Below, piece after piece: positions 1,504-52,352 of a DNA stretch of 64,000 nucleotides. The position numbers and the translations under genes were made by a program. Below the pieces are notes generated by a model that had not been told where the DNA came from, did not search any database, and was given only the letters and a program-made list of their open reading frames with translations. Where the stretch lies: contig DAOKZW010000002.1 in assembly GCA_035325445.1 (NCBI GenBank), positions 5,826 to 69,825 of the forward strand, read 5' to 3'. Positions within the stretch are counted from its first letter, which is position 1, and every line of letters starts with the position of its first letter. The DNA comes from Flavobacteriales bacterium (GTDB taxonomy: Bacteria > Bacteroidota > Bacteroidia > Flavobacteriales_F > PHOS-HE28).

Positions 1504-4500
1504 ATGTCCCACACGAACGAAGCCGCTCCGGCTTCCATTTTCAGCTACTTTGAACAAGGGGCCGCCTTGGCCCCAAACGCCATCGCGCTCATCGGAGAGC
1601 ACGGTGCATTGACCTATTCGGAATTGAGCGCCCGGGCGGGACGGCTGGCGCACCTGTTGCAAGCCGCCCAGATCGGGCCTGGTGCCAATGTGGGTCTTTG
1701 CTTGGACCGGTCCGCAGAACTGGTCATCAGTGTTTTGGGGATCCTGCAGGCCGGCGCGGCCTACGTTCCCTTCGACCCCTCCTATCCGCCGGAGCGGATC
1801 GCGGCCATGCTGGAAGATGCCCGCCCGCCTGCCGTGATCACCAGCCGGGCACATGCCCACCTTTTCCGTGATGCCGGTGCGAGCACGCTCCTGATCGAGG
1901 ACATGGACCTGGGGACCGGCCCTGCCCTGCAAGGCCCCGGCCCCGCGCAGGGCACCGACCTGTTGTACATCCTTTTCACCAGCGGAAGCACCGGCCGGCC
2001 CAAAGGCGTGGCCATGCCCCACGCGCCGCTGGTGAACCTGATCCAATGGCAGCTACGCACCTCGGTACTACGGGCCGGCGAGCGCACCTTGCAGTTCGCG
2101 CCCATCAGTTTCGACGTCAGCTTCCAAGAGATATTCACCACGTTCGCGCAAGGCGGCACCTTGGTGCTGATCACTGATGAAGACCGGCTCAACAGCACAC
2201 AGCTGCTGCGCAAGATCATCAGCCAAGGCATCAACCGGATCATCGTGCCTTTTGTGGCCTTGCAATACCTGGCCGAAGCCGTGGAGCGCACCGGCGAAGT
2301 GCCTTCATCGCTCAAGGAGGTCTTCACCAGCGGGGAGCAACTGAAGATCACCCCGGCCATCGCCAACCTCTTCAAGCAATTGCCCGGCTGCCGCTTCTGC
2401 AACCAGTACGGCCCCACCGAGGGCCACGTGGTGAGCGAGCTCGAGCTCAAGGGCGACCCGGATGCCTGGCCCTCCCTGCCCAACATCGGCACGGCCATCG
2501 ATAACGTGAAGCTGTACGTGCTCGATGAGCAAATGAAGCCCGTGAAACAGGGTGAGGAAGGCGAGTTGTACCTCGGCGGCGCCTGCGTGGCGAAGGGCTA
2601 CATCGGACGCGACGACCTGACGGCCGAACGCTTCCTTGCCGACCCGTTCGTGGCCGGTGGCCGCATGTACAAGACCGGCGACCGTGCCGCTGAGCTCCCG
2701 AACGGCGAGATCGACTACAAGGGCCGCATCGACGGGCAAGTAAAGGTGCGCGGCTACCGCATCGAACTGGGCGAGGTCGAGGTGGCCATGGAGAAACACC
2801 CGCACGTGGAGCAGGCCGTGGCCACGGTACGCGAAGACCGGCCGGGCCTGAAACGACTGGTGGGCTACTACGTCGCCAAGGGCGAACTGGGGACCAATGA
2901 TCTGCGCAAACACTTGGCCTCCCTCCTGCCGGACTACATGCAGCCTTCGGCCTTCGTGGCGGTGAAGGAACTGCCGCGAACACCCAGCGGCAAGATCGAC
3001 CGAAAGGCGCTTCCCGCCCCTGACGTAAAGCGGCCCGACCTCGACGTTGCCTTTGCGGCACCCGAGACCAGCACGCAGAAGACCATCTCTCAAGTATGGG
3101 CGGACCTGCTCGGCATTGACCGGGTGGGGCTCGACGACAACTTCTTCGACCTGGGCGGCAACTCGCTGCTGAGCATCCAAGCGGTGGCGCAGCTCGAGGG
3201 CCATGGCCTGAAACTGCCCATCGTCAAATTGTACCAGCACCCCACCGCCCGGGCGTGTGCCGCCTATCTCGATGGTGACGCCGGCACGGTGTCGCCCGCC
3301 GAGCTCGCCGCCAAACGGAAGGCATTGGGCACCGCCAAGGGTGATGTGGCCATCATCGGCATGAGCGGCCGATTCCCCGGCGCCGCCAGCGTGGAGGAGC
3401 TGTGGGCCAATTTGCTGGCGAAAAAGAGCAGCATCAGCCAGTGGGCCGCCGACGACATCGACCCGAGCATTCCGGCCGAGCTCCGCAACGACCCCGACTA
3501 TGTAAAGGCACGCGGGGTGATCACCGATGCCGACAAGTTCGACCACGGCTTCTTCGGCGTGAACCCCAAGGTAGCGGCGCTGATGGACCCCCAACAGCGC
3601 GTGTTCCTGGAAACGGCATGGGCCGCCTTGGAGGATGCCGCATACGACCCCGCCCGATTCAACGGGCTCATCGGCGTGTATGCCGGCATGGGCAACAACA
3701 CCTATTACACGCGGAACGTCATCGGCCATCCCGACCTGATCGAGCAGGTGGGCGATTTCGCAGTGATGACGGCCAACGAGAAGGACTACATCGCCACGCG
3801 CCTCGCCTTCGAGTTCGATCTGCGCGGACCGGCCCTGAGCATCCACACTGCGTGCAGCACCTCCCTGGTGGCCATCGCACAGGCCTTCAAGGCGTTGCGC
3901 GACGGTGAGTGCGACATGGCCTTGGCCGGCGGCATCGCCATCACCGTGCCCATCAACAGCGGCATCCTGTACAACGAGGGCGGCATGTACAGCCCCGACG
4001 GGAGCACGCGCACCTTCGACGCCGAGGGCAAAGGCACCAGCTTCAGTGATGGCACGGGCATCGTGGTGCTCAAGCGCCTGGACGATGCCGTGCGCGACAA
4101 GGACCACATTTATGCCGTGGTGAAAGGTGCCGCGTTGAACAACGACGGCAGCGACAAGGCCAGCTTCACCGCACCCAGCGTACGCGGGCAGGCCGAAGTG
4201 ATCGCCATGGCCCAAGCTGACGCCGGTGTTACACCCGACCAGATCACTTACGTGGAAGCGCACGGCACCGCCACCCCGCTCGGCGATCCCATCGAGGTGG
4301 AGGCCCTGACATTGGCATTCGGGGGCAAGCAGGACGGCCACCGCTGCGCCATCGGGTCGGTGAAGAGCAACATAGGCCACCTCACCGCTGCCGCCGGTGC
4401 GGTTGGCGTGATCAAGACCGCCATGGCCTTGCAGCGGGAGCAGATCCCCGCCAACATCGGCTTCGACAAGCCGAACCCGTCGATCAACTTCGCTGATTCG

Positions 4501-39957: not shown

Positions 39958-40045
39958 AGGGATGTTCCCTGCCCACCGTTAGGTAGGCTCCATTCACCGT
40001 ATCGGTTGGTCGGCCCTGGAACTATGGGCTCCTCCCCTATGCGTT

Positions 40046-40318
40046 TCATTGTTCCCACTCCCCCAAATGCGCCCGCATCAGGCTCTTGAAGAGCTTGCCA
40101 TGGTTCGGGACGCGCAGGTGTAGCAGTTCATGCACGATCACATAGTCCTGGAACTTGAGGGGTTTATGCAGGAGTTCGCTATTGAAATTCAAGTGGCCTT
40201 TCGTGGAGCAGCTGGCCCACTTGTGGCGCATAGGGCGGATGCCCAGCCACACCACCTCCACACCGATCTTCTCCGACCAGTCACGGACGCGTTGCTTGAA
40301 GGCGGCCTTGGCGTCCAT
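40046..40318 (-). CDS. YgjP-like metal-dependent hydrolase (DUF45), unusually short (90 aa)
   Basis: HEXXH motif in YVIVHELLHLRVPNHG preceded by WASCSTKGHLNFNSELL, the conserved C-terminal half of DUF45. ATG shares one nucleotide with the hsdR stop at 40318. Missing about 100 N-terminal residues relative to typical family members. Confidence 0.6.
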   Translation of the reverse strand: MDAKAAFKQRVRDWSEKIGVEVVWLGIRPMRHKWASCSTKGHLNFNSELLHKPLKFQDYVIVHELLHLRVPNHGKLFKSLMRAHLGEWEQ

Positions 40319-43300
40319 CAGATGCGGTCTGCTTTCTCCAGCAACGTGAATAACTCATCCACCAGCCGCGCCACCAGTATTTCGTCGTCCACCTGGCCGT
40401 AAATGGCGAAGGTGACCTTGGAGCGCAGCTCGCGCAGTTCTTTCTCACTGGTCTTCCAGTGCGGGAAGGCCACGAAGGCGTCCTTGATCTTGCGGCTCAC
40501 CGTCTCGCTTTCGGGCACCTGGGCATCCAGCAGGGTGCGGTACACGAAGTAGGTAAGCCCATCGAAGCCCTTCTCGGCCTGCTCCCGTTTGCGGTCCTCA
40601 TTTTGTTGCACGAGGCGTAGCAGATCATCCAGCGCCTCTTTCGTATCGGACTGGCGGCTTTCGAAGCTCTCCTGCACCGCCTTGGCGCGTTCGGCCATGG
40701 CGATCAGGAAGGGGTCGTCGCTTTCGGACTCGGCCTTCTTCTCGATGCTCTTGACCAAGTTGATCACCTTGGTACCGTCACCCGCATTCTTCTGCTTGAT
40801 CAGCTCGATGGTGCGCTCGTTGATCTCCACCAGCTCCAGCGGCGCGTTCACGTTGTAGGTGCCCACGTGTTCCTGCACCAGGCTGTTCGTCTTGCGCTGG
40901 AACTCCCGGTCCACCTCCACACGCTTGGTGTAGGCCTTGCGCACCACGTCGTAGATGGCGCTCAGCGTGGCATAGGGCTCGATGTAGGGGCGCAGGAAGG
41001 CATCGGGGCTGATGATCTCATACAGCATCTCCACTTCCTTGTACGCCTTGAAGAACTCCTTGCGGCGTTCCGGGTCGCGGAAGTGCTCGATCAGCGTGTC
41101 CACGTCGCGGTCGTCGAAGCGGCCGCCCACCAGCGCCAGGTAGGCGGGTACCTTCTGCTCCATCTTGTTCTTGAACAGACCCTTCAGCAGGGCGATGTCC
41201 TTCACGATGGCATTGACCTCGTCACTATCAAAGGCCAGCGCTTTCTCCAACTTGTCGAAGATGCCCACGAAGTCCAGCACGAAGCCGTGGGGCTTCACCA
41301 TCTCGGCCTGCTCGTTCTCATACGGACGGTTCACCCGGGCGATGGCCTGCAGCAGTGTGTGGTCGCGCATGGGCTTGTCCAGGTACATGGCGTAAAGCAG
41401 CGGCGCATCGTAGCCGGTGAGCAGCTTCTCGGTGACGATGAGGATCTTGGGCTGCTGGTCCAGTTTGGTGAAGGCCTTGCGGATCTGCCGCTCCTTCTTC
41501 TCGTCCAGGTGGAATTCCTTCAGCGCGGCGCTGTCGTTGTTGTTGCCGGTGTACACTACGGCGCTGTACTCGGGCGGCAGGTACTTGTCCAGCGCGTGCT
41601 TGTACAGGGCGCAGGCCTCGCGGTCCACGCCTACGAGGAAGGCCTTGTAGCCGAGCGGCTCCACGTTCTCGGTGTAGTGCTTCGCCACGAACTCGGCCAC
41701 CTTGGGGATGCGCTCCCTGCCCTTCAGGAAGTTCTTCAGGTTCACGGCGCGGTCCAGCACCTTGTTCAGGTGCTCGATGTCCGCCAGGCCCTCGGCCTCG
41801 GCCAGCGAGAGGAACTCCTTGTCCAGCGTTTCGTGCGGCACCAGCAGCTCGTTCGGCGCCAGGTTGTAGTACAGCGGCAATGTGGTGCCGTCGCTGATGC
41901 TGTCGGCGATGCTGTACTTGTGCAGGTAGCCTTTGTCGTCCTCCCCGCCGAAGGTCTTGAAGGTGCCACGTCCGTAGGCGGTCTTGTCGATGGGTGTGCC
42001 GGTGAAGCCGATGTAACTCGCGTTCGGCAATCCGGCCATGAGGAAGTTGCCCAGGTCGCCGCCGGTGGTGCGGTGCGCCTCGTCGATCAGCACGTAGATG
42101 TTCTTCCGCGTGTTGATGTTTGCCGGCATGTCGCGGAACTTGTGCACCATGCACACGATGATGCCGCGGTAGTCGTCCTTCAGCAGCTTGTTCAGCCGGG
42201 CGATGCTCTCGGCGTGCTCGATGTTGCCCAGGCCCAGCGCCGCGAGGTTCTTCAGCATCTGGTCCTCCAGCTCGTTGCGGTCGATCATCAGCAGCACCGT
42301 GGGCTTGTCCGCCTCGGGGGCCTTGAAGAGCAGCTCGGCGGCCTTGATCATGGTGAAGGTCTTGCCGCTGCCCTGCGTGTGCCACACCAGCCCGCGCCGC
42401 CGTTGCGGGTCCAGCGCGCGGTGCACCACGCGCTCCACGGCCGTGGTCTGGTGCTGGCGCAGGATGTACTTGTTCAGCTCCTCATCCTTCTCGGCGAAGA
42501 CAATGAAGTCCTTCAGCAGGGCCAGCACCTGGGGGATGGCGCAGAAGCTTTTCACCTTGGCCTCCAGTCGGCCGGGGGTGTAGGATGGCGGACCTCCTGG
42601 TCCGCCCGAGATCCCGGTGCTATGCGGCGGACCGGGAGGTCCGCCTTCCGTCAATGCGTCCTTCTCGTAGAGCAGGTACTCACCCTCCTTCAGCCCGCTC
42701 TTCACCGGATTGTTGCGGATGTAATCACACACCTGCTCAAAGTGGTCCTCGTTGCGGATCAGCCGGTCCCAGTACTCGTCCATCCAAAGCGAACCGGTCT
42801 TACCCAGGCGCTTATTCACTTCACGTGCGCTGAAGCCCTTCCATGACTTCACGATCTCACCGATCGTGTGGCCGTTCAGCGGGCGGAACAGCACATGCAC
42901 GTGGTTCGGCATCACCACGTAGCTCACGACTTCATAGCGGTCGCCGTCGAAGTGAAGGATCGCATCACCAACAATGCGGGCCAACTCCGGCTTCCGGAAG
43001 GGGCACGAGCCTTTGCCGGCGTCCAGCCACTTGTCCATGCGGCGGCTGAAGCGGTCGAAATGCTCCAGTTCGATGGCTTCGGTCCACGGTTCGGGGTGTT
43101 CGCGCAACCACGCATCGCGCTCGGCTTTCCATTCATCCAAAACTTCACGTGGAAGAGAGTCGCCCATGCGCCACGTCACGGAGCAGTACACGCCGGGTTG
43201 GTGCCAATGCGGTACACGGTGCTCTTTCGGGTTGACGGAGGAGTACGGGTCGAAGAAGGGGCTTTCCGGGATGGCGGACATTCCTGGGACGGCGGACATT

Positions 43301-44091
43301 CCTGTCCGCCCAGTGCTCCGTGGCGGACTGGAAAGTCCGCCTTCCTCCCCCCGTAGGATTTTCCACTCGAAGATGTTGCGGTACACCGTATTCCAGGTCA
43401 CCCCGTACTTGAAGCCGATGGCATCGGTGGCGGTGAAGAGCTGCTGGGGCACCATTACCTCGGGCGTTTCGCGGTGGTAGCGCCGGATCTGGTCGATGCC
43501 CAGGGCGATGCCCTCGTCCTTGGTGGCGTTCTTGCACTCCACCACCAGCACGGGGATGCCGTTGATGAGGAAGACCACATCCTGCCGCGTGCTGTGGTGG
43601 CCGTTGTGCGTTACCCACTCCTCGGTGACCTCGTAGATATTCCTGTCGGATGGCGGACTTTCTTGTCCGCCCGAGACTCCGGCCACACCCGTGCTCACGC
43701 GCGGACTGGAAAGTCCGCGTTCCAAGACCGCACCGTAATCGATGAGCACCAGGTCGCGCTCGCGGTCCTCTTCGTGGTCGAAGAACTTGCCTTGGTTGCG
43801 CAGGTACTGGAGGAACTCGCGGTTGCCGTAGATGTCCGTGTGCAGGTGGCGCAAGCGGCCCGGCAGGGCACCGGGAGCCTCGGTGTAGCGCGGGTTGAAG
43901 CGCCGCACCTGCGCATCCAGCACCTCTTCGAAATAGAGGCTGGCACCCCTGGCCCGTTCACTGCCCGTAGCGGCGGCGTTGAAACCCCGGCGCCGCTCGG
44001 CGGTTTCGCGCGGCACCACGGCCCAGCCCACCTCCTTGGCGTAGGCCAGGATGCGCGCTTGAACGGTCTTGTGTTCGCCGGGGGTGGGCAT
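40318..44091 (-). CDS. hsdR: type I restriction enzyme R subunit (HsdR) carrying three in-frame REP insertions and an in-frame RayT-like transposase domain
   Basis: N-terminal PD-(D/E)xK nuclease (DVVFLINGIPVLVVECK), helicase motif I HTQGSGKTFTM, DEAH-type LIDEAHR, motif VI region, C-terminal helical domain. The 1257-aa ORF is continuous. About 290 extra residues (aa 251-510) plus a 25-aa insert at aa 126-150 are not HsdR-like. Confidence 0.85.
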   Translation of the reverse strand: MPTPGEHKTVQARILAYAKEVGWAVVPRETAERRRGFNAAATGSERARGASLYFEEVLDAQVRRFNPRYTEAPGALPGRLRHLHTDIYGNREFLQYLRNQGKFFDHEEDRERDLVLIDYGAVLERGLSSPRVSTGVAGVSGGQESPPSDRNIYEVTEEWVTHNGHHSTRQDVVFLINGIPVLVVECKNATKDEGIALGIDQIRRYHRETPEVMVPQQLFTATDAIGFKYGVTWNTVYRNIFEWKILRGEEGGLSSPPRSTGRTGMSAVPGMSAIPESPFFDPYSSVNPKEHRVPHWHQPGVYCSVTWRMGDSLPREVLDEWKAERDAWLREHPEPWTEAIELEHFDRFSRRMDKWLDAGKGSCPFRKPELARIVGDAILHFDGDRYEVVSYVVMPNHVHVLFRPLNGHTIGEIVKSWKGFSAREVNKRLGKTGSLWMDEYWDRLIRNEDHFEQVCDYIRNNPVKSGLKEGEYLLYEKDALTEGGPPGPPHSTGISGGPGGPPSYTPGRLEAKVKSFCAIPQVLALLKDFIVFAEKDEELNKYILRQHQTTAVERVVHRALDPQRRRGLVWHTQGSGKTFTMIKAAELLFKAPEADKPTVLLMIDRNELEDQMLKNLAALGLGNIEHAESIARLNKLLKDDYRGIIVCMVHKFRDMPANINTRKNIYVLIDEAHRTTGGDLGNFLMAGLPNASYIGFTGTPIDKTAYGRGTFKTFGGEDDKGYLHKYSIADSISDGTTLPLYYNLAPNELLVPHETLDKEFLSLAEAEGLADIEHLNKVLDRAVNLKNFLKGRERIPKVAEFVAKHYTENVEPLGYKAFLVGVDREACALYKHALDKYLPPEYSAVVYTGNNNDSAALKEFHLDEKKERQIRKAFTKLDQQPKILIVTEKLLTGYDAPLLYAMYLDKPMRDHTLLQAIARVNRPYENEQAEMVKPHGFVLDFVGIFDKLEKALAFDSDEVNAIVKDIALLKGLFKNKMEQKVPAYLALVGGRFDDRDVDTLIEHFRDPERRKEFFKAYKEVEMLYEIISPDAFLRPYIEPYATLSAIYDVVRKAYTKRVEVDREFQRKTNSLVQEHVGTYNVNAPLELVEINERTIELIKQKNAGDGTKVINLVKSIEKKAESESDDPFLIAMAERAKAVQESFESRQSDTKEALDDLLRLVQQNEDRKREQAEKGFDGLTYFVYRTLLDAQVPESETVSRKIKDAFVAFPHWKTSEKELRELRSKVTFAIYGQVDDEILVARLVDELFTLLEKADRI
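42587..42645. repeat. REP-like palindromic doublet (inside hsdR, in-frame)
   Basis: GGCGGACCTCCTGGTCCGCC ... GGCGGACCGGGAGGTCCGCC: two perfect 8-bp-stem hairpins 19 nt apart. Confidence 0.75.
42646..43260 (-). mobile_element. RayT / IS200-like Y1 HUH tyrosine transposase domain, in-frame inside hsdR, flanked by REP doublets
   Basis: Residues about 278-482 of the hsdR ORF. HUH motif VVMPNHVHVLF and catalytic-Tyr helix FEQVCDYIRNNPVKSGL. No homology to HsdR. Confidence 0.6.
43273..43341. repeat. REP-like palindromic element (inside hsdR, in-frame)
   Basis: GGCGGACATTCCTGGGAC GGCGGACATTCCTGTCCGCC cagtgctccgt GGCGGACTGGAAAGTCCGCC. Translates as SSPPRSTGRTGMSAVPGMSAIPESP. Confidence 0.75.
43652..43718. 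repeat. REP-like palindromic doublet (inside hsdR nuclease domain, in-frame)
   Basis: GGCGGACTTTCTTGTCCGCC ... GCGGACTGGAAAGTCCGC. Translates as LSSPRVSTGVAGVSGGQESPPSDR. Confidence 0.7.
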
Positions 44092-44094
44092 GGT

Positions 44095-46029
44095 TTATAC
44101 TGTCGGCCAATCTTCAGGTACCAGCTTAAGACCACCGCGCCAACGTTCGCGTATAGTGTCCTGGTACCAATTCTCCTGGAACTCGGCGTGCTCCGTCATG
44201 ATAACTTGAAGCCCCGGTGCCACTTCCTGAACAAGGTCATAGATCAGCTTGAACATCCTTTTCAAGTCCTCCCTATCATCGCCTTTTAGCTCAACCACGT
44301 TGTCTCTTGAAACATCTGGTGGGAAGTACACCTGTGAAGGCTGGTCCAGAAAAAGGAAATGAGGAACAGGACGACGTTGCATTGTAAACCACTTGTGAAG
44401 GGCAAGGTGGCCTATTAAATGATAACCTACCCAGTTCTCACCACTGCCCATCTTGTCCATTGTAATCGCTCCATTGGAAGTTGCCGCAAACACCGTGAGT
44501 TTGTTCACATTTAGGCGTAAGGGATACTTTGAATGTTCGAGCTCCAACCTCTTCGCCCAGATGGACATGTCTTCCGCCAGGATGGAGACGATTGATTCAA
44601 GCCGCTCCTTGATGTCCTCGTCCGACAACTTCTCCTCAAACTCTGCAACTTCAAGCTGCAGGAGCTTCGATTGTCTTTCCAGGTCTAGTGTATTGGGTAA
44701 GTCGGGCAAACTTTCCAAGTACAGACTGATGCGACCAAGGATCAGAGCCCGGAGCGATACATCGTCGCGTAATTGCTTGAGCTTCTCATCAGCCTGAACA
44801 ACCGCGGCCATCGACTCTCGATTCTTACGCAAACTCTCATTCAAGCCGCTAATCTTCGATTGAGTCTCTGCGATAGACTTCTCTACCTGAGGTAGGTTAC
44901 GTTGTACTCTATTCAGTTGGTCAGCCACCTTAGAAATGGAGTCAGTGATGCTCGTGGCGATGGGCAGGTTAGACGTATCCGCCAAACCTTGCTCACACAA
45001 CGGACAGACGTGCGCTTCACCCTGGCTCAATAACCCTATGCTCACCAGCCTTGCCTTCTGTTCCTTAGCCTCTGAAGTGAATCCTACTTCAGCATCCGCA
45101 ATTGATTGAATCGCCGAAAGTTGTGCTTGGAGGTGGCCTCGCTCCGCCAAGAGTCTCTCGCGTTCAGATGCTAGCTTCTCGTACTCGCCGGCATCCGTGC
45201 CCTTGGCGTCTAGCACCGACACACTGGCCTGGCTTGCTTTATGCAGATGTGCAACGAGTTCGTTCCAGTCAGAAGTATCCGGGGCTTGGCTCAAGCCAGC
45301 CTCCCGAGCTTGCGCTAGCAGCGAAGCGGCTTTGCCGATTCCTTCGCCGCGAATTGACCGTAGCTCGTTCAGCTTCCTCTCAATCGAGCGGAGTTCACCC
45401 TTTAACATTCGAAGCCGCTCTTGATTTGCGACATAATCATCGCTCACTGCGCCTAAAAAGAAGGGCAGTGTATCCTTGAGGGCTTGTGCCTTGAAGGAGT
45501 CGTTCGCCTTGTAGAAGAGCTGCTCCGGTTGATTGATCACATACTGTGGTTGAAAACACAGCATTAAAGCGTGGCGCACGGTAGCGGCAACAGGCAATCG
45601 TGTGTGGCCCGCATCAGGAACGTGAATATTCTCCTTTACACCAGTCCATCCTGTCACTATTGAGATTAGGCCCTCCTTGTTTGTATTCGAGATTAGGTCT
45701 TCGAACGCCGGGATAGCGATCTCTCGGCCAATTGCAACGTAACACTCCTCCGAGTAGTCTCCGTCCACCCGCGGCGCTTTGCGGGCAATGAAGGCTTCCC
45801 CGTCATCTAGCTTGAGCCGCAAACCGAACCATGAAACGGCGGAGCGAATAATACCATAAGGCACCTTGCATTTGCCACTACCCATGCAGAAGTCAACAAT
45901 TGATATCAGTGCTGACTTGCCAGTCTTTGAGGCGCCCGTTATGACGTTTACCTCGCCAGGAGTGAATGGGAGCTTACGAACTCGTCCATCATGCGAGTAA
46001 AGCACCAAGTCGTGTATTTGAATGCTCAT
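44095..46029 (-). CDS. SMC/Rad50-like ABC ATPase with coiled coil and CxxC zinc hook (DUF3732-like; candidate ABC-3C ATPase)
   Basis: Walker A VITGASKTGKSAL at N-terminus. About 300-aa heptad-rich middle with CPLCEQ hook. C-terminal signature-like MGSGENW, Walker B/D-loop HFLFLDQPSQ, H-loop IMTEHA. Start set at the Met of MSIQIHDL (CAT 46027-46029), overlapping the upstream stop by 4 nt. Confidence 0.7.
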   Translation of the reverse strand: MSIQIHDLVLYSHDGRVRKLPFTPGEVNVITGASKTGKSALISIVDFCMGSGKCKVPYGIIRSAVSWFGLRLKLDDGEAFIARKAPRVDGDYSEECYVAIGREIAIPAFEDLISNTNKEGLISIVTGWTGVKENIHVPDAGHTRLPVAATVRHALMLCFQPQYVINQPEQLFYKANDSFKAQALKDTLPFFLGAVSDDYVANQERLRMLKGELRSIERKLNELRSIRGEGIGKAASLLAQAREAGLSQAPDTSDWNELVAHLHKASQASVSVLDAKGTDAGEYEKLASERERLLAERGHLQAQLSAIQSIADAEVGFTSEAKEQKARLVSIGLLSQGEAHVCPLCEQGLADTSNLPIATSITDSISKVADQLNRVQRNLPQVEKSIAETQSKISGLNESLRKNRESMAAVVQADEKLKQLRDDVSLRALILGRISLYLESLPDLPNTLDLERQSKLLQLEVAEFEEKLSDEDIKERLESIVSILAEDMSIWAKRLELEHSKYPLRLNVNKLTVFAATSNGAITMDKMGSGENWVGYHLIGHLALHKWFTMQRRPVPHFLFLDQPSQVYFPPDVSRDNVVELKGDDREDLKRMFKLIYDLVQEVAPGLQVIMTEHAEFQENWYQDTIRERWRGGLKLVPEDWPTV

Positions 46030-46538
46030 GGTCTCATCCCCAGAAGGGCATATGTTGTTTCTACTGCACCGGCTCGCATGAGCCACCGACCAAGGAACTC
46101 CGCCTTCTTCATACACTCAGCCACCTCATCGGACATATCGCCACTGGCTCGATTGAACACCACCCTATACTTCGCGTTGGGCACAATCACCTCACCTTCG
46201 ATTTGAAATAGACCACTGTTCGATCCGTAGAGGAGCGCTTCCTTCGCGTAAGGAACCAGCTGCAGAGTTCTGAAGGGCAATCCTGCAACCAGCAATGGGT
46301 TGCTCTCTACCCAGGTCGGTATGGATGATCTTACGTTGGTTGGAAGCGACTCTCGCGTCTTCTGATGCAAGATTAGTGGGAGCAAGAGAAAGGCCTCCAA
46401 GTAGTGCAATGCGGTACGTTTTCCCTTAGGATTCTTAAGCGCATCCGTCGCCGCATGCCAGATGATGAAGGCACAGAACCCAGGGTTGAGCAGGAACCGC
46501 TCTTCATGAGGCCGTTGATTCCAAGGCTGCAACGGCAT
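46026..46538 (-). CDS. small hypothetical protein; candidate middle component of a tripartite ABC-3C-like module
   Basis: 170 aa, no recognisable motif. Wedged between the upstream stop (2-nt gap) and the downstream ATPase start (4-nt overlap). Confidence 0.45.
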   Translation of the reverse strand: MPLQPWNQRPHEERFLLNPGFCAFIIWHAATDALKNPKGKRTALHYLEAFLLLPLILHQKTRESLPTNVRSSIPTWVESNPLLVAGLPFRTLQLVPYAKEALLYGSNSGLFQIEGEVIVPNAKYRVVFNRASGDMSDEVAECMKKAEFLGRWLMRAGAVETTYALLGMRP

Positions 46539-46540
46539 AG

Positions 46541-47740
46541 TCAGCTAAGGATTGAAGCCAAGCGGTCCTTGAACTCTGGATGCCAACCGATCCTCATGTC
46601 GTTCGCCAAAATGTGCAATGAGCCACGGGTAATGAACCCATCATGCACGCCGGGTCTTATCCGAGAGTTTTGATTGCCCTGTTCCGCCCATGCCAGCAGA
46701 TCGCTAGCCGCACGCTTCTTCACTTCTTCAGTGGCGCCTGTACCCAGGGTGTCCTCCATCTGGTGGAATACAGCCTCCCATTCCTCAATCAAGGCCCGCT
46801 CATATACGGTAAGGTCGGCTACAAAGAGCAGGTCTTGGCGCAGCCACCTTGAACGCTGTTCAAAGGCTCTGAAATAGTCACGTATTGCTGCACGCAAACG
46901 CTTTGAATGAGAAGTTGCAAGTTCAACTTGCTTAACAAAGGGCAAGCTCTTGTGCGCCTCCGCGGTATCCGTATCAAGTTCAAAGTTCAGCAGGTCATCA
47001 GCAACAGGCAATGAGTCCTGGCGGAATCGATCGCGAACTTCAGTCACCTGCGCTTCAATTTCCTCGGACAGTATTCTACTACTTAACGAAGTGTCCAAGA
47101 GTTGCTGGATAACACGCCTAAACCACCAGCCTTCCAGATACTCAACGAACGTTTCACGATTGTTCTTCCCTGCAGCATAGTGCACTTCTGCCGCAAGAAG
47201 AGAATTGACGCCTTCGATGTCAGGCGCTTGGTCAATGACAAGTACTCGCTCAAGTAGCTCACGGCACTGGCTTGGTTTCCATGCCTTATAGGCGGCGTAT
47301 GCGCTCTCGTTCGTCGCGCTCTCCGAAGTTTGAGCCACGGCCAAAAGTCCCTTCATCGCGCCCTCAACATCTCTGTCTTTCGTTTTCAGCTTTCCTGCAA
47401 TAGAAGCGGCCTGTGCTGTCTCAGAGGTCACGAGGAAGAGCATCGTGTCCTTAGCTAGCTTTCCAGCATTAGTTAGCTCAATCCAAATACGCAGCGTTTT
47501 CCAAAGATCACTGGAGCTGTTCATAAGATTTCCCTTACGGTTCAAATGATGCTTGGTCTGTAGCAGATCCGTTGGCGTGCCAAGCTTCTCGAAAGCAACG
47601 TCATCGAGTGTCTCCACTGAGACACTGAATATTTCGCTGTTCTTCAACCGCTGAAGGCTCCACAACAGTGCACACCGAACCTGGTATAGGTAGCCCAATG
47701 CAGATTCTGCGGCTGAGAATTGCGCTGTTGTATCGGTCAT
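46541..47740 (-). CDS. hypothetical protein; candidate effector with N-terminal restriction-endonuclease-like (Cap4/DUF4297-type) region
   Basis: N-terminus ESALGYLYQVRCALLWSL ... VSVETLDDVAFEK ... LLQTKHH resembles the G-Y-x-Y-Q start and D / (E,Q)xK pattern of PD-(D/E)xK-type Cap4 nuclease domains. ATG overlaps the hsdS stop (ATGA). Confidence 0.45.
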   Translation of the reverse strand: MTDTTAQFSAAESALGYLYQVRCALLWSLQRLKNSEIFSVSVETLDDVAFEKLGTPTDLLQTKHHLNRKGNLMNSSSDLWKTLRIWIELTNAGKLAKDTMLFLVTSETAQAASIAGKLKTKDRDVEGAMKGLLAVAQTSESATNESAYAAYKAWKPSQCRELLERVLVIDQAPDIEGVNSLLAAEVHYAAGKNNRETFVEYLEGWWFRRVIQQLLDTSLSSRILSEEIEAQVTEVRDRFRQDSLPVADDLLNFELDTDTAEAHKSLPFVKQVELATSHSKRLRAAIRDYFRAFEQRSRWLRQDLLFVADLTVYERALIEEWEAVFHQMEDTLGTGATEEVKKRAASDLLAWAEQGNQNSRIRPGVHDGFITRGSLHILANDMRIGWHPEFKDRLASILS

Positions 47741-49017
47741 GCTCGTACTGATGTGTAGTACGTGACTTCTTTAGGAACCCTCACCTTCCCCGTCATCAGC
47801 TCATGAAGCAGGGTGCGGAAGAGGTCTTGGAGTGACGTGAGTTTCGTTCGGTGGTGTTCGCCCTTGCGTTCAATCGCAAGCAAAGCATCTGTGATGCCAT
47901 TCTGCACATCAAGCCCAGGAAGTGGTAGTGGCATACTCCTCACATCGGCCACATTGAGATGGGCTACCGTGAGGCCACTGGCGATCGACTTCATGTGCTT
48001 GCTCAGTACCGGACTGTAGAAGCTGTAGACGAGGAACTCTGGACTAAGCCTAGATCGGTCTGTGCGTATCAGCATGGTTCGTTGCCCCAAGCTGAGTCGC
48101 ATGCCTTCCGGAATGACGCATGCTTCACCTACCGGAGCCTCGCGACTGAACAGAACATCACCTGGTTCGGGCACGGCGCGCCGAACACGATCACGATACT
48201 GCTCCTCGCTCGTGAAGAAGGCTGGTTCCGGCACGAAACGACCATCGCGGATGTTGAAGTTCCGGGCGACGCGTACCCCAGTGGTCAGGAACTTCGGCGT
48301 GGTATGCGGGCAATCGATGACCAGTTCACACACTGACTGCAAAGGCACCACCTCCCAACTCTCCGGCACCAACCCGATCTCGGTCTCCTTCTGGGCTTCG
48401 CCGCGCAGCCCTTCGGTGAAGAGCTTTTGCATCAGGGCCTGCTTCAGCTCGGTGGTGGTGCGGATCAGGCGCTCCTGCTGTTCGATGGCCGATTGCACCG
48501 TGCTGAGCACTTGGGCGATGCGCTGCTGTTCGGCAAGCGGTGGCAGTGGGAGTTCAGACCCGAACACGTCGGATTCACGCACCGCCGGATATCCTGCGCC
48601 ACGTTCCAATCCTGCCATACGTGCTATGAAGCCATCCGTAAGGAGGAATGAGTAGAGGTACCGGGGATCAACCTTGCTCCGGTCGCTCCGAAGCACGCAA
48701 TAGCCTGTGCTAGCGATCTGGCCATCCAGCTTCTCCGGTACTAGCGCCACACGCCTAAGCGTAGGACGGACAGTTGCGAAGAGCACATCGTCCCGGCGTA
48801 TCTCTTTCCGCGCACGGCTCGGCGCATCTTTCCCTACTAGAGAAGCTGACTCTGTGATCTTGAACGATTCATTGGATACGCTGGAAACATCCACATACGC
48901 GAAGCGCTCATGAGGTGCTTTGCGCGGGTCCCGTTGCTTCGCCTTGAGCACTAGGTTCCCGATGCGCTCGCGGCGCCAACCTTGGGGCAAGTCGTATGGA
49001 AGTTCATCCTCCATCAT
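47737..49017 (-). CDS. hsdS: type I restriction-modification specificity subunit HsdS
   Basis: Two target-recognition domains separated by the conserved central helix LPPLAEQQRIAQVL and the C-terminal helix LQDLFRTLLHELMTGKVRV. Start overlaps the hsdM stop (ATGA). Confidence 0.85.
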   Translation of the reverse strand: MMEDELPYDLPQGWRRERIGNLVLKAKQRDPRKAPHERFAYVDVSSVSNESFKITESASLVGKDAPSRARKEIRRDDVLFATVRPTLRRVALVPEKLDGQIASTGYCVLRSDRSKVDPRYLYSFLLTDGFIARMAGLERGAGYPAVRESDVFGSELPLPPLAEQQRIAQVLSTVQSAIEQQERLIRTTTELKQALMQKLFTEGLRGEAQKETEIGLVPESWEVVPLQSVCELVIDCPHTTPKFLTTGVRVARNFNIRDGRFVPEPAFFTSEEQYRDRVRRAVPEPGDVLFSREAPVGEACVIPEGMRLSLGQRTMLIRTDRSRLSPEFLVYSFYSPVLSKHMKSIASGLTVAHLNVADVRSMPLPLPGLDVQNGITDALLAIERKGEHHRTKLTSLQDLFRTLLHELMTGKVRVPKEVTYYTSVRA

Positions 49018-51041
49018 GCCAACTGCTTCAAGATCTTCTTCAGCGCCGCATCCGTTTCCCGCGCCTCGGCCTCAATGGCCTCCAGTTCCTGCACCAGCTC
49101 GGGGATGGGCCGGTAGCTGGTGGCCTCGCCGGTGTGGATGTAGCGGCTGGGCGAGAGGTTGTAGTCGCTCAGTTCGGCCAGTGGCACAATGCGGCTGAGC
49201 TTCTCCTCCTCCTTCCACCCGAGCATCACGTCCGCAATGCGGTCAATGTGCTCGGGCGCCAGGAAGTTCTTGGGCTTGCCCTTCTCGAAGAGCTGGCCGG
49301 CGTTCACCAGCAGCACCTTGCCCTGGCGGGCTGCCGGCTTGGCCCTGCGCAGGAAGAGCACGATGCCCGGCGCGGTGGTGTTGTAGAAGAGGTTGTCCGG
49401 CAGGTAGAGCACGCTCTCCACCAGGTCGTTATCCACGAACCACTTGCGTACCTCGCGCTCCTTGCTGTGGCCATCGTTGCCGCTGCCGCGGCTGGCGGCG
49501 CCGGTATCCAGCACCACGGCGGCGCGGCCGGTCGGCTTCAGGCTAGAGAAGATGTGCTGCGCCCAGCCCCAGTCCGCACTGGCCTTTCCGGGGAAGCCCG
49601 CGCCGGTGGGGAAGCGGTCCAGCTCGTCGTTGGCGTAATCGGCCTCGGTGAACCAATCCTGGTTCCACATGGGGTTGGCCACCACGCGGTCGAAGGTCTT
49701 CAGCCGCCCACGCTCGCGGAACTTGGGGTTCTTGAAGGTGTCGCCGATCTCGATCTGGCCCTGCATGTCATGGATGATCATGTTCATGTTGGCCATGGCC
49801 CAGGTCTCGGCGATGTATTCCTGGCCGTAGAGGCGGAGGGGCGCGTACTTCGGCATGGCAGGCATTCCTGGGCCGGCGGACATTCCTGGGCCGGCGGACA
49901 TTCCTGGGTCGGCGGACATTCCTGTCCGCCCGGTACCGTGTGGCGGACTGAAAAGTCCGCCTACCGAATATGTGGTGCCGCCATCCTTCATGCGCGCCTC
50001 CAATGCGATCTCGCATTTGATCAGCAGGCCGCCGCTGCCGCAGCAGGGGTCGTACACCTCCATGCCGGGCTCGCATTCCAGCACGCGGGCCATCACCTCG
50101 CCCACTTCGCCGGGGGTGTAGAACTCGCCCGCGCTCTGCCCGCCGCCCTCGGCGAACTTGCGGATGAGGTACTCGTAGCTCTTGCCGATGATGTCGGCCT
50201 CCACATCGTTGAGGCCAAGGCGCTTGGTGCTGATGGCCTCGATGAGGTTGCTGAGGCGGTCGTCGGCCAGGTCGCGCTGGCCGTGGGTAGTGGCGTTGAA
50301 GTCCACGCGGTCGATGATGCCCTGCAGCAGCGGGTTGGCCTTGGCCACTTCGCGCAGGTGGGTGGTGAGCTGCTCGCCGATCTTGTCGCTGAGGGTGCGG
50401 ACCACGCTCCACACGGGCTGCTCGGGGTCGGCGGGTTCCAGCGGCAGGTAGAAGCGCACGAGCTTCCTATCGGCTTTTACCAGCCGGAAGGCCTTGGCGC
50501 GGGATCCCACCTCGGCGGCGATGCGGTCCAGCTCATCATCGAACACGTCGCACAGCCGCTTGGTGAAGATGAGCGGCAGGATGTAGTCCTTGTATTTGGG
50601 GGCATCCTTGGCGCCCCGGATGGAGCAGGCGGCATCCCAGATCCAGGTCTCGAGGGATTTGTCGGGGGTGGGCTTGGCAGCCTTCTTCGGGCGGCCGGTC
50701 TTGGTTTTTTCGGCGGGGTCGGGGTCGGTCTTCGCGGACCGGGAGGTCCGCGGGCTCGGTTTGTGGGCGACTTCCTTATCCCCGTCCTGCGCGGACCGGG
50801 AGGTCCGCGGACCGGAGGCTTCCTTTTCCGCGGTCTGCGAGGACCGCGGACCGAGTTTGATGCTGCCGCCTCGCCCGCGCCCGAGGGCGATGGCGCCTTC
50901 GGCGAGGAGCTCGGCTTTTAAGCTTTCGTAGGTGGGCTCGTCCACATCCAGCAGCTCGCGGGCCTTTCCATTACCCAAGCTGGGCGTTTCAGCCAGTAGG
51001 GCGAGCAGGGCTTCCTTGCGGTTGGTATTCTCTTCGGTCAT
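49014..51041 (-). CDS. hsdM: type I restriction-modification N6-adenine DNA methyltransferase HsdM carrying two in-frame REP insertions
   Basis: Motif I VYDPCCGSGGLLIK, FYTPGEVGEVMARVL, motif IV variant VVANPMWNQ, C-terminal HsdM helical region. Continuous 675-aa ORF. Inserts are GGLFSPPHGTGRTGMSADPGMSAGPGMSAGPGMPAMP and the N-terminal region EKEASGPRTSRSAQ ... SPRTSRSAKTDPDP. Confidence 0.85.
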   Translation of the reverse strand: MTEENTNRKEALLALLAETPSLGNGKARELLDVDEPTYESLKAELLAEGAIALGRGRGGSIKLGPRSSQTAEKEASGPRTSRSAQDGDKEVAHKPSPRTSRSAKTDPDPAEKTKTGRPKKAAKPTPDKSLETWIWDAACSIRGAKDAPKYKDYILPLIFTKRLCDVFDDELDRIAAEVGSRAKAFRLVKADRKLVRFYLPLEPADPEQPVWSVVRTLSDKIGEQLTTHLREVAKANPLLQGIIDRVDFNATTHGQRDLADDRLSNLIEAISTKRLGLNDVEADIIGKSYEYLIRKFAEGGGQSAGEFYTPGEVGEVMARVLECEPGMEVYDPCCGSGGLLIKCEIALEARMKDGGTTYSVGGLFSPPHGTGRTGMSADPGMSAGPGMSAGPGMPAMPKYAPLRLYGQEYIAETWAMANMNMIIHDMQGQIEIGDTFKNPKFRERGRLKTFDRVVANPMWNQDWFTEADYANDELDRFPTGAGFPGKASADWGWAQHIFSSLKPTGRAAVVLDTGAASRGSGNDGHSKEREVRKWFVDNDLVESVLYLPDNLFYNTTAPGIVLFLRRAKPAARQGKVLLVNAGQLFEKGKPKNFLAPEHIDRIADVMLGWKEEEKLSRIVPLAELSDYNLSPSRYIHTGEATSYRPIPELVQELEAIEAEARETDAALKKILKQLA
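49855..49961. repeat. REP-like element (inside hsdM, in-frame): 3.5 x 18-bp GGCGGACATTCCTGGGCC units plus two hairpins
   Basis: ggcggacattcctgggcc x3, GGCGGACATTCCTGTCCGCC, GGCGGACTGAAAAGTCCGCC. Same family as the hsdR copies. Confidence 0.8.
50734..50846. repeat. REP-like triple hairpin (inside hsdM 5' region, in-frame)
   Basis: GCGGACCGGGAGGTCCGC at 50734-50751 and 50791-50808, GCGGTCTGCGAGGACCGC at 50829-50846. Confidence 0.7.
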
Positions 51042-51235
51042 TCAGCCGATGAAAATAGGGGAATCGGGGTAAACGTGCGGAGTTCGGAGGCAGTTGGCAG
51101 CGGGCAATCGTCGGGGCCCGCAAACCACAAACCAACCTTCTCGCCGAACACAACTGACAGCCCTGCCTGATCAAAGATCGCTTCGGCCGCAAGGCCGGCC
51201 TCGCGATGACGTGCCGCAGGCGCGAGGGAGTGCCG

Positions 51236-51280
51236 CCCTACGAACTACGCCCTACGAACTACGAACTCCGAACCCCGAAC
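51236..51280. repeat. short tandem repeat (CCCTACGAACTACG / CGAACTMCG units) upstream of the hsdM operon
   Basis: ccctacgaactacg ccctacgaactacgaactccgaaccccgaac read directly. Lies between the rluD stop (51288) and the hsdM start (51041). Confidence 0.6.
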
Positions 51281-51287
51281 TAAAAAC

Positions 51288-52352
51288 CTACTCCTCCTCC
51301 AACGGCCTCGCATTCGTGTACACCCGCCAGCGTTCCAGCACGGCTTGCATGTCGGCGGGGAGCGGGCTTTCGAATTTCATGCGCTTGCCCGTGGCCGGGT
51401 GGTCGATCTCCAATAGGTACGCGTGCAGGGCCTGCCGGGGCAGCAGCTCGAAGCAGTTCTCCACGAAGCGCTTGTATTTGGTGAAGACCGTGCCCTTGAG
51501 CACGCGGTCGCCGCCGTAGTGGGCATCGTTGAAAAGCGGATGGCTGATGTGCCTCATGTGCGCCCGGATCTGGTGGGTGCGGCCGGTCTCCAGCTTGCAC
51601 TCCACCAAGGTGACGTAGGTGAAGCGCTCCAGCACTTTCCAGTGGGTGATGGCGGGTTTCCCCTGTTCGGGGTCCTGGGGCACGGCCATCACGGTGCGGT
51701 CCTTGGGCGAGCGGTCCAGGTTGCCCTCAATGGTGCCCGCATCCTCCTCAAAGTCACCCCAGACCAGGGCCTGGTAGCGGCGGTCGTTGCTGCGCACGTA
51801 GAATTGATGCGCCAAGTGGGCGAGCGCATCGTCGGTCTTGCCGATCACCATCACGCCACTGGTATCCTTGTCCAGGCGGTGCACCAGTCCGGGGCGCGGC
51901 ACGGGCTGGTTGGGCGCGGACGGCAGCTTGCCGAAGTGGTAGAGCAGGGCGTTGACGAGCGTGCCCGTCCAGTTGCCATGGCCGGGGTGCACCACAAGCC
52001 CGGGCTGCTTGTTGATCACCAGGATCTGGTCGTCCTCGTACAGCACTTCCAGCGGGATGTCCTCCGGAATGAGCTCTACTTCGCGCACGGGCTGGGGCAG
52101 CACCACGGTGACCACGTCGCGGGGCTTCACCTTGTAGCTGGGCTTCTCGGGCTTGTCGTTGACGAGCACGTTGCTGTTGCGGATGGCTGCGGCCACGCGT
52201 GTGCGCGAGGCACCGGCCATGCGCTCCGCCAGGAATTTGTCCAGGCGCATGAGTCCTTGGCCGGGGTCGGCCACGATGCGGTGGTGCTCGTAGAGTTCCT
52301 CGCCGGCCTCAGAAACCTCGTCCACCGGTTGTTCGTTCTTGTTGCTCATCAC
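51288..52352 (-). CDS. rluD: 23S rRNA pseudouridine synthase, RluA/RluD family
   Basis: S4-like N-terminal domain (RLDKFLAERM) and catalytic motif HRLDKDTSGVMVIGK with conserved Asp. Confidence 0.85.
   Translation of the reverse strand: MMSNKNEQPVDEVSEAGEELYEHHRIVADPGQGLMRLDKFLAERMAGASRTRVAAAIRNSNVLVNDKPEKPSYKVKPRDVVTVVLPQPVREVELIPEDIPLEVLYEDDQILVINKQPGLVVHPGHGNWTGTLVNALLYHFGKLPSAPNQPVPRPGLVHRLDKDTSGVMVIGKTDDALAHLAHQFYVRSNDRRYQALVWGDFEEDAGTIEGNLDRSPKDRTVMAVPQDPEQGKPAITHWKVLERFTYVTLVECKLETGRTHQIRAHMRHISHPLFNDAHYGGDRVLKGTVFTKYKRFVENCFELLPRQALHAYLLEIDHPATGKRMKFESPLPADMQAVLERWRVYTNARPLEEE

Follow-up and report, generated by a model that had tools for sequence, protein, structure and literature searches.

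Probable REP copies of an hsdR-embedded RAYT transposase in the hsdM gene of a type I restriction-modification operon

Why would the same short hairpin repeats be carried in frame by two genes of one restriction-modification (RM) operon and be absent from the DNA around it? This question is raised by a 64,000-nucleotide stretch of a Flavobacteriales genome (contig DAOKZW010000002.1; the whole stretch is hereafter the window, with a G+C content of 62.6%), in which the methylase gene hsdM (49014–51041, minus strand, identified from its open reading frame (ORF) and Pfam domains) encodes a continuous 675-aa protein with two in-frame blocks of such repeats. A preliminary description of the window had reported both blocks, and its positions, ORF and quoted peptides are all correct. 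Our answer is that the inserts in hsdM are probably copies of repetitive extragenic palindromic (REP) sequences, single or paired as REP doublets forming hairpins (REPINs), whose cognate REP-associated tyrosine transposase (RAYT) is itself encoded in frame within hsdR of the same operon, the system as a whole being housed in coding sequence. The RAYT inside hsdR, which was missing from the preliminary description, would be the reason why the REP copies cluster in the RM operon.

The protein that carries the inserts matches HsdM_N and N6_Mtase in Pfam (6.7e-82 and 5.9e-18), has solved homologues in 7vru and 7bst, and is encoded on the same strand as hsdS and hsdR, as expected of a type I operon; DPCCGSGG (motif I) and ANPMW (motif IV) are invariant across its homologues, and its score against the NCBIfam hsdM equivalog, 162, lies below the cut-off of 243. 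Its nearest named homologues come from Flavobacteriales metagenome-assembled genomes (MAGs). Five metagenomic contigs that were assembled independently of one another, among them a 117-kb ENA contig and a Logan assembly, encode the exact HsdM sequence, so that the inserts are not an assembly artefact. From its N-terminus, the protein consists of a small helical domain (aa 1–63), a REP-bearing linker (~aa 64–125), HsdM_N (131–270) and N6_Mtase, the last interrupted by a REP-bearing loop (aa ~355–398).

The repeat unit is an 8-bp stem with a 4-nt loop, GGCGGACN-N4-NGTCCGCC. At 49855–49965 (minus strand), the hsdM loop holds a REPIN-like pair of these units together with an in-frame 18-bp tandem array, and encodes VGGLFSPPHGTGRTGMSADPGMSAGPGMSAGPGMPAMP; its two hairpins lie at 49942–49961 (GGCGGACT-GAAA-AGTCCGCC) and 49911–49930 (GGCGGACA-TTCC-TGTCCGCC), and Tandem Repeats Finder reports 3.4 copies of the array with 97% matches at 49863–49924, as well as 2.3 copies of the same 18-bp unit in hsdR (43264–43304). 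Read on the coding strand, the loop block runs TCG-GTA-GGCGGACTTTTCAGTCCGCC ... GGCGGACAGGAATGTCCGCC, with CCAGGAATGTCCGCCGRC units repeated after it. Three single REP hairpins (50733–50850, minus strand) sit in the linker that joins the N-terminal domain to HsdM_N, two of them identical (50733–50752 and 50790–50809, CGCGGACC-GGGA-GGTCCGCG) and the third, at 50827–50850, a variant with a 9-bp stem and a 6-nt loop in which both arms are changed (GGTC/GACC for GGAC/GTCC); together they encode GPRSSQTAE...GPRTSRSAQ...SPRTSRSAK. These N-terminal copies form a distinct subtype (subtype 2, GGACC-TCCC/GGGA-GGTCC), whose hairpin forms are exact reverse complements of one another. Three 18-bp units plus two hairpins had been described for the loop and three hairpins for the linker: the hairpins and the array are indeed present, while the stem-and-loop unit, the 3.4 copies and the variant nature of the last linker hairpin amend that anatomy.

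The blocks behave as REPs and REPINs do in terms of folding. As single-stranded DNA they fold with z-scores of −3.5 to −6.4 against shuffled sequences, the loop block reaching −22.8 kcal/mol (z −6.4), and one inverted repeat (I3) has 24-nt arms that are 92% complementary across a spacing of 19 nt; the REP pairs in hsdR are able to fold into one long REPIN-type hairpin. A search of Rfam over 40000–51300 returned no known RNA family. The 5′ tag GTAG is seen at the hsdM loop copy alone, the remaining copies having GAAG, GGAG or none. All the stem variants (GGAC/GTCC, GGGTT/AACCC, GGTC/GACC and GGAG/CTCC) are still paired, and four of the eight stem pairs vary, each time on both sides, a degree of pairing that is partly by construction as the hairpins were gathered with a perfect-stem finder. 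What is conserved is the pairing of the stem and not the peptide.

Within the window, these elements are tied to the two RM genes. The pattern GCGGAC-N6-GTCCGC has 10 matches in 64 kb against 0.59 expected, a number reached by none of 100 shuffles, and every match lies in hsdM or hsdR; likewise, 10 of the 13 perfect hairpins with a stem of at least 8 bp belong to the REP family. In total, 11 REP copies fall in the 5.8 kb of hsdM and hsdR and none in the other 58 kb on either strand, and when the search was relaxed to three mismatches the extra matches elsewhere in the window were at chance level. The chance that five independent blocks would all land in these two genes, which make up 9% of the window, is ~6e-6. 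The preliminary description had seen REP-type elements common to hsdM and hsdR, no copies in the other minus-strand coding sequence and, from this, a non-random association with the RM genes; all of this holds, and the absence extends to the whole window and both strands. All 11 copies being intragenic, the usual picture of REPs as high-copy, dispersed and mainly extragenic does not apply within these 64 kb.

A likely source of the copies lies in hsdR (40318–44091, minus strand), whose 1257-aa product comprises an HSDR_N nuclease domain, an in-frame RAYT block, a SWI2/SNF2 motor and T1R_D3. Three REP pairs interrupt it on the same strand: one in a loop of the HSDR_N domain (43641–43723, aa ~123–150, encoding ERGLSSPRVSTGVAGVSGGQESPPSD), one with copies of the 18-bp unit (43263–43345, encoding EGGLSSPPRSTGRTGMSAVPGMSAIPE) and one of subtype 2 (42579–42649, encoding EGGPPGPPHSTGISGGPGGPPSY). 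The second and third form the upstream and downstream junctions of a segment of ~200 aa (HWHQPG...VMPNHVHVLF...EYWDRLIRNE...DYIRNNP) at 42652–43262 (minus strand, aa ~277–480), between nuclease and motor. This segment matches Pfam Y1_Tnp (8e-10, 39.3 bits against a cut-off of 23), and its best NCBIfam model is REP_Tyr_transpos, NF047646 (E 5.6e-22, 78.2 bits against a cut-off of 80). The closest solved structure is E. coli TnpA_REP (4er8); the HUH motif (VMPNHVHVLF) is present, and the tyrosine of DYIRNNP aligns with Y115 of 4er8. Membership of IS200/IS605 was considered and rejected, with NF033573 at 27.9 bits against a cut-off of 55 and a single copy in the window. An intein reading was also rejected, as Pfam found no Hint or intein family in HsdR or HsdM and the junctions are REP-coded Gly/Pro peptides. 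The block has no conserved start codon of its own and is read in frame as part of hsdR rather than as a stand-alone gene, and the window has one RAYT copy only. From its sequence, hsdR holds a putative RAYT in frame and bracketed by REP pairs, which is the arrangement of a REPtron.

The hsdM copies and the RAYT tend to go together across loci. We counted hairpins of the form GCGGA[CT]-N6-[AG]TCCGC in all loci with an hsdR relative. In the window there are six in hsdR, four in hsdM and none elsewhere; in two orthologous RAYT-bearing loci of 22 kb each from two related species, the counts for hsdR, hsdM and elsewhere are four, four and zero (L003) and six, three and zero (L006); and in a RAYT-bearing verrucomicrobial locus of 8 kb (L109) they are four, two and two, the last two directly after hsdM. 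Among ~75 RAYT-less loci from a metagenome scan, 31 of which include hsdM, no hairpins were found save a degenerate pair in L175. Hairpins in hsdM are thus seen in 4 of 4 lineages with a RAYT vs 1 of 31 RAYT-less loci (Fisher ~1e-4). The subtypes also match across the genes of one operon, with L003 having subtype 2 only in both genes and the window having both subtypes in both genes.

Two of these loci show rearrangements of their own. In L175 (190–11821), a degraded relative, ~8 kb of genes on the opposite strand stand in place of the N-terminal half of hsdR, RAYT site included, and hsdM retains its REP pair, the second hairpin being altered on both arms (GGAGC/GCTCC). In L109, four clustered REP hairpins lie beyond the hsdM stop codon (3175–3380), and past them lies a second, diverged hsdM 3′ tail (…IEAEARETDKALKEILEKIGI*) that overlaps the start of hsdS; judging by its sequence, this region looks like a REP-associated rearrangement or an allele junction.

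Where the inserts sit in HsdM bears on how much the position itself explains. The loop insert lies between the motif I helix (DPCCGSGG...CEIALE) and strand β2 (LYGQE). The protein aligns to solved type I methylases as residues 128–342 and 402–665, and the intervening 59 residues correspond to 15 in 7vru_A; from DPxCGSG to GQE, the loop of the window protein spans 78 aa, against 51 aa for L003 and L006 and 35–39 aa for relatives that lack the RAYT. A REP-less relative (P0018, 598 aa) has the same N-terminal domain and a short linker. An AlphaFold model of HsdM is poor overall (mean pLDDT 57.5), and in it the REP-coded stretches 68–125 and 355–396 are coil of the lowest confidence, with the linker at pLDDT ~27–32. 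The REP inserts occupy structurally permissive places, a surface loop after motif I and an inter-domain linker. At the equivalent of 49855–49990, HsdM homologues from elsewhere (P0033–P0117, L146, L204) hold unrelated REP-like peptides such as SPSPPSGERAGVRGQSK, IPSPLRGEGGG and GRNAPA. The loop is expanded in 51 of 117 homologues, with REP-like peptides from at least three families, and it is therefore a recurrent hot spot of insertion or tolerance.

This hot spot gives some weight to a different explanation, in which the inserts simply belong to a REP population spread over the whole genome and happened to settle in permissive HsdM sites, their link with the RM operon being a local coincidence. 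Other bacteria are known to carry REPs in frame within genes, one of them that of an N-6 DNA methylase of Opitutus terrae, and the doublet GGCGGAC-N6-GTCCGCC ... GGCGGAC-N6-GTCCGCC is found, among the matches listed, in MAGs of very many phyla (Acidobacteriota, Planctomycetota, Chloroflexota, Calditrichota, Firmicutes and more), with differing loops. Against it, there are no copies in the 58 kb of non-RM sequence of the window or in the flanks of L003 and L006; hsdM hairpins go with the RAYT, as counted above; and the REP subtype in hsdM tracks the one beside the RAYT in the same operon. We consider it unlikely, though it is the strongest of the alternatives. Among its listed matches the doublet scan also gave two HsdR::RAYT chimeras (L090 and L109) and, in L018 (Chromatiales), a stand-alone RAYT (E 3.6e-62), on whose flanks lie hairpins that have the same GGAA loop.

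How widespread is the chimeric hsdR, and does the RAYT belong to it as a domain? A database search found the HSDR_N, Y1_Tnp and motor architecture in dozens of protein clusters at 90% identity. The chimeric proteins are 1200–1350 aa long and 64–89% identical to the HsdR of the window, and come from Flavobacteriales, Verrucomicrobia, Wenzhouxiangella, Chlorobium phaeobacteroides and other Pseudomonadota; the HsdR proteins of L003 and L006 (1242 and 1290 aa) also carry Y1_Tnp. In an alignment of 13 chimeras with five RAYT-less proteins, the RAYT always enters at the junction of nuclease and motor, after ...NIFxWK..E and before GKLEAKVKSF, and all 13 chimeras retain the HUH motif and the catalytic tyrosine. 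Variable REP-coded peptides (GGLSSPP, GGQECPP, GGLENPP, SGFSNP, GGHSCPP) bound it at both junctions in every aligned chimera, as REP pairs do in the window, and extra lineage-specific REP peptides stand at other HsdR positions; the pair at 43641–43723, for example, is missing from L003 and from L206, the closest RAYT-less locus.

The fixed insertion point across phyla, the conserved catalytic residues under purifying selection and the fact that RAYT relatives are embedded mainly in other restriction enzymes could all be taken to mean that the RAYT is a recruited HsdR domain, perhaps a defence nuclease acting on single strands or hairpins, with the REPs as regulatory or self-recognition sites and not mobile copies. 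Against this, RAYT-less HsdR proteins of ~973 aa are common, reach 95% identity over the parts that both forms have, and are interleaved with RAYT-bearing ones on the backbone tree (within 10% backbone distance of the HsdR of the window there are six proteins with and 10 without it); variable REP copies stand on both sides of the block in every case, as in a mobile REPtron; and the same RAYT clade is also found in LeuRS, CarB and other housekeeping genes. A recruited domain therefore seems very improbable to us. The preliminary description had proposed a look for alleles free of inserts, and such hsdM and hsdR alleles do exist in close relatives.

The history of the block points in the same direction as the interleaving. 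RAYT and HsdR backbone distances correlate moderately (r = 0.49), with some discordant pairs, and between the window and L003 the synonymous divergence (dS) of the RAYT block is 0.67 vs 0.19 for the C-terminal hsdR backbone, more than threefold higher; these sequence comparisons suggest that the block has a history separate from that of the backbone, through recombination or exchange. Taken with the interleaved alleles, they indicate that it was repeatedly gained, lost or exchanged. In L206, the empty hsdR site (~10700) reads GAG GTA GGC AAG and contains GTAGGC, which resembles the REP 5′ end and could be a footprint or chance; a GTAG-like target as a general insertion rule was rejected, as 40 other RAYT-less alleles mostly have GTCGGC. 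Smaller changes are seen among the copies themselves. A 98%-identical HsdM allele (P0001) has one 18-bp unit fewer in the loop, P0002, P0004 and P0005 have additional linker copies with duplicated host flank, and a Thiocapsa homologue has the REP plus host flank in three tandem copies. Such changes of copy number and duplications of flank point to slippage or duplication at the hairpins.

Looking beyond type I systems, an exhaustive search with the RAYT block gave 13,292 representatives, and in about one third of the best 150 the RAYT lies inside a long protein. In the 50 long proteins (within P0245–P0390), the Pfam hosts, with overlapping counts, are Eco57I-type (11), MmeI_Mtase (9), N6_Mtase (7), TaqI_C (6), LeuRS (6–7, with the RAYT after the editing domain) and CarB (3), besides single cases of HSDR_N, EcoEI_R_C, XseA, PdxA, a DinG-like helicase and others, and each embedded relative is bracketed by its own repeat-coded peptides. 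Restriction enzymes, mostly of type IIG/IIL (Eco57I-like, MmeI-like), lead the host classes, a ranking that carries no formal enrichment since RM enzymes split into many clusters at 50% identity. One may tentatively picture a RAYT clade with an intein-like niche, in which REP-RAYT-REP units are carried in frame in host genes, preferring the linkers of restriction enzymes (HsdR, IIG Eco57I-like, IIL MmeI-like) and entering LeuRS and CarB too, REPs colonise loops of the operon such as that in hsdM, and the whole spreads between alleles and phyla with a mobile, addictive RM module, possibly coupled to the translocation or nuclease activity of the host. We hold this wider view with much less confidence than the account of hsdM, and would not be surprised if it proved wrong.

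What is being kept, the peptide or the hairpin? We estimated dN/dS (Nei-Gojobori) between the genes of the window and their orthologues in L003 and L006. The cores of HsdM give 0.07–0.19 and those of HsdR 0.11–0.14 (0.33 for residues 1–120 vs L006), and the RAYT block gives 0.108 (dS 0.67, 199 codons), so both enzymes and the transposase are kept as proteins in their current frame; the REP-bearing HsdM linker gives 0.6–1.0. The REP-coded peptides evolve near neutrally and look like passengers, unconstrained as peptides. Each REP block is open in four to six of the six frames, and the hairpins of the four RAYT-bearing loci begin at all three codon positions, giving GGxxxPP most commonly and also RTxxxSA and ADxxxVR; homologues read the same hairpin in other frames. 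All five insert blocks in hsdM and hsdR retain the frame. The preliminary description had stressed that the element is read in the same frame and orientation in both genes. This is true of one pair, the hsdM loop copy being 86% identical over 83 nt to hsdR 43263–43345 and read alike, and it does not extend to the N-terminal copies, which are in a different frame from the first loop hairpin. Nor is it a sign of anything special, since most frames are open, all three are used and the REP pairs are near-palindromic, so that orientation is hardly defined. The frame shared by the hsdM loop and the hsdR copy reflects one copy in common and a multiple-of-three filter, not a constraint on the peptide.

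A reading in which the peptides are selected as protein features, as flexible linkers or as variable loops for assembly or the evasion of anti-restriction, with the 18-bp array as a tuning knob, would draw on the flexible GGxxxPP of the commonest frame, on the 6-aa units whose number varies between near-identical alleles with the frame kept, and on the persistence of the inserts across species. The relaxed dN/dS of the linker, the unrelated peptides that one hairpin yields in three frames, the close relatives that do without inserts and the conservation of stem pairing instead of peptide all speak against it, and we give it a very small chance. That the operon is a decaying pseudogene cluster, its ORFs open since GC-rich REPs rarely hold stops, could appeal to the open frames of each REP block and to the antisense ORF described below as a sign that ORFs are cheap at this G+C content, and is rejected on the low core dN/dS, together with five of five blocks in frame, an architecture shared with orthologous loci from other species and with dozens of clusters, and invariant catalytic motifs. 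The antisense ORF in question, of 641 aa (48996–50921, plus strand, opposite hsdM), is most likely a high-G+C artefact, an open frame meaning little here.

Returning to a REP/RAYT system housed in the operon, we propose the following course of events. The RAYT, an HUH/Y1 enzyme of the kind that cuts and rejoins single-stranded hairpin DNA, would seed and maintain REPs preferentially near its own gene. Slippage promoted by the hairpins, and gene conversion, might then expand or contract the copies, a step suggested by the 18-bp array, by the differences in copy number between 98%-identical alleles and by the tandem duplications that include host flank. Selection would spare a copy only if its length is divisible by three and it sits in a loop or linker, as the RM operon needs a working methylase. 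The persisting entity would be the DNA (or RNA) hairpin, with the peptides as passengers.

Several points weigh against this proposal. Copies could exist beyond the 64-kb window and the 22-kb loci. In two of three further RAYT-bearing operons, in which the pairing of hsdM with hsdR is presumptive, the HsdM loop is empty, so a RAYT does not always imply copies in hsdM. A DNA comparison with L206 revealed no clean insertion boundaries or target-site duplications, the junctions having been remodelled. The permissiveness of the loop alone explains part of the pattern, given the unrelated REP-like families in other lineages, and the count of stem covariation is partly circular for the reason given above. 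To our knowledge, RAYT-driven transposition of REPs has never been shown in vivo in any system, and movement or maintenance of the present REPs by the RAYT is something that we infer.

The rest of the operon and its surroundings are free of the repeats. Downstream of hsdM on the minus strand, hsdS (Methylase_S, 47737–49017) has no REP copies, nor does a three-gene ABC-3C defence cargo (CTD7 effector, MC3 and DUF3732 ATPase; 44095–47740, minus strand) between hsdS and hsdR. The orthologous loci L003 and L006 occupy the same chromosomal site with the same flanking genes and hold different defence cargo in this gap, a PHP and AAA_15 protein in L003 (13129–15813) and an NB-ARC protein in L006 (13760–15670); in L206 (5510–9997), the gap holds SIR2/TIR (Thoeris-like) genes. 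No cargo gene of these four loci has REP hairpins. Directly after hsdR lies a small YgjP-like gene (PF01863; 40046–40318, minus strand, gene call from L001), which is kept in L003, L006 and L206.

If the proposal holds, it matters in several respects. In existing descriptions, REPs are dispersed and extragenic, and the RAYT that serves them is a domesticated transposase encoded on its own and inherited vertically; the present case is otherwise. It offers a small natural setting where the action of a RAYT on a few defined local targets is testable, and a concrete reason for Gly/Pro-rich indels between alleles of restriction genes. It may represent a new mode of persistence for a DNA transposon, as an in-frame guest of host genes. 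For annotation, it is a warning that an RM enzyme may owe its low-complexity inserts and "fusion" domains to mobile elements.

How does this arrangement compare with known systems? In the literature searched as full text, with incomplete coverage, no account turned up of restriction genes that host a RAYT, or of REPs limited to the coding sequence of an RM operon. With IS200/IS605 elements it shares the Y1/HUH TnpA fold and hairpins recognised on single-stranded DNA, but there is no tnpB, and the unit does not have the form of a multicopy element whose left and right ends differ. Like inteins and homing endonucleases, it is a selfish in-frame unit at a fixed site, present or absent among close alleles; unlike inteins, the unit consists of a DNA transposase with DNA hairpins on either side, and nothing suggests removal at the protein level.

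Ogata and colleagues reportedly described, in 2000, palindromic elements of Rickettsia lying in frame in protein genes. These Rickettsia palindromic elements, the classic example of such inserts, resemble the present REPs as palindromic repeats in frame at permissive sites of coding genes, but they are an unrelated sequence family, longer, with no known transposase and no confinement to an operon. As cited in PMC3733652, they occupy permissive sites in frame and leave the proteins functional.

The closest precedent for the inserts is that of Di Nocera et al. 2013 (PMC3733652), who described in-frame intragenic GTAG/CGTC REPs, most frequent in Opitutus terrae and Rickettsia conorii. There, single REPs or dimers in known proteins encode 20–30 aa, with a bias towards DNA metabolism and one N-6 DNA methylase among the hosts, and the authors' view is that inactivating insertions were purged. 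The in-frame singles and dimers, the DNA-metabolism genes and the methylase host are all shared with our case; in contrast, those families are genome-wide, their RAYTs are separate genes, and no link was drawn to a RAYT in a neighbouring gene or to RM operons, and a true GTAG tag is found here on one copy only, the others having GAAG or GGAG.

The system itself is best compared with REP/REPIN-RAYT systems as defined for E. coli TnpA_REP and its bacterial interspersed mosaic elements (BIMEs), for the REPINs of Pseudomonas and for the REPtron (PMC3116915, PMC3337134 and PMC3333891). In common are short GC-rich hairpins, inverted pairs that fold into longer ones, and a TnpA_REP-like Y1/HUH transposase bracketed by REPs. 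The differences are that here the RAYT is translated in frame within hsdR instead of standing alone, that all copies seen are intragenic and limited to two genes of a single operon, not dispersed outside genes, and that, whereas REPIN-RAYT systems are described as mostly inherited vertically, the RAYT and its REPs travel here with a horizontally spread RM operon across phyla.

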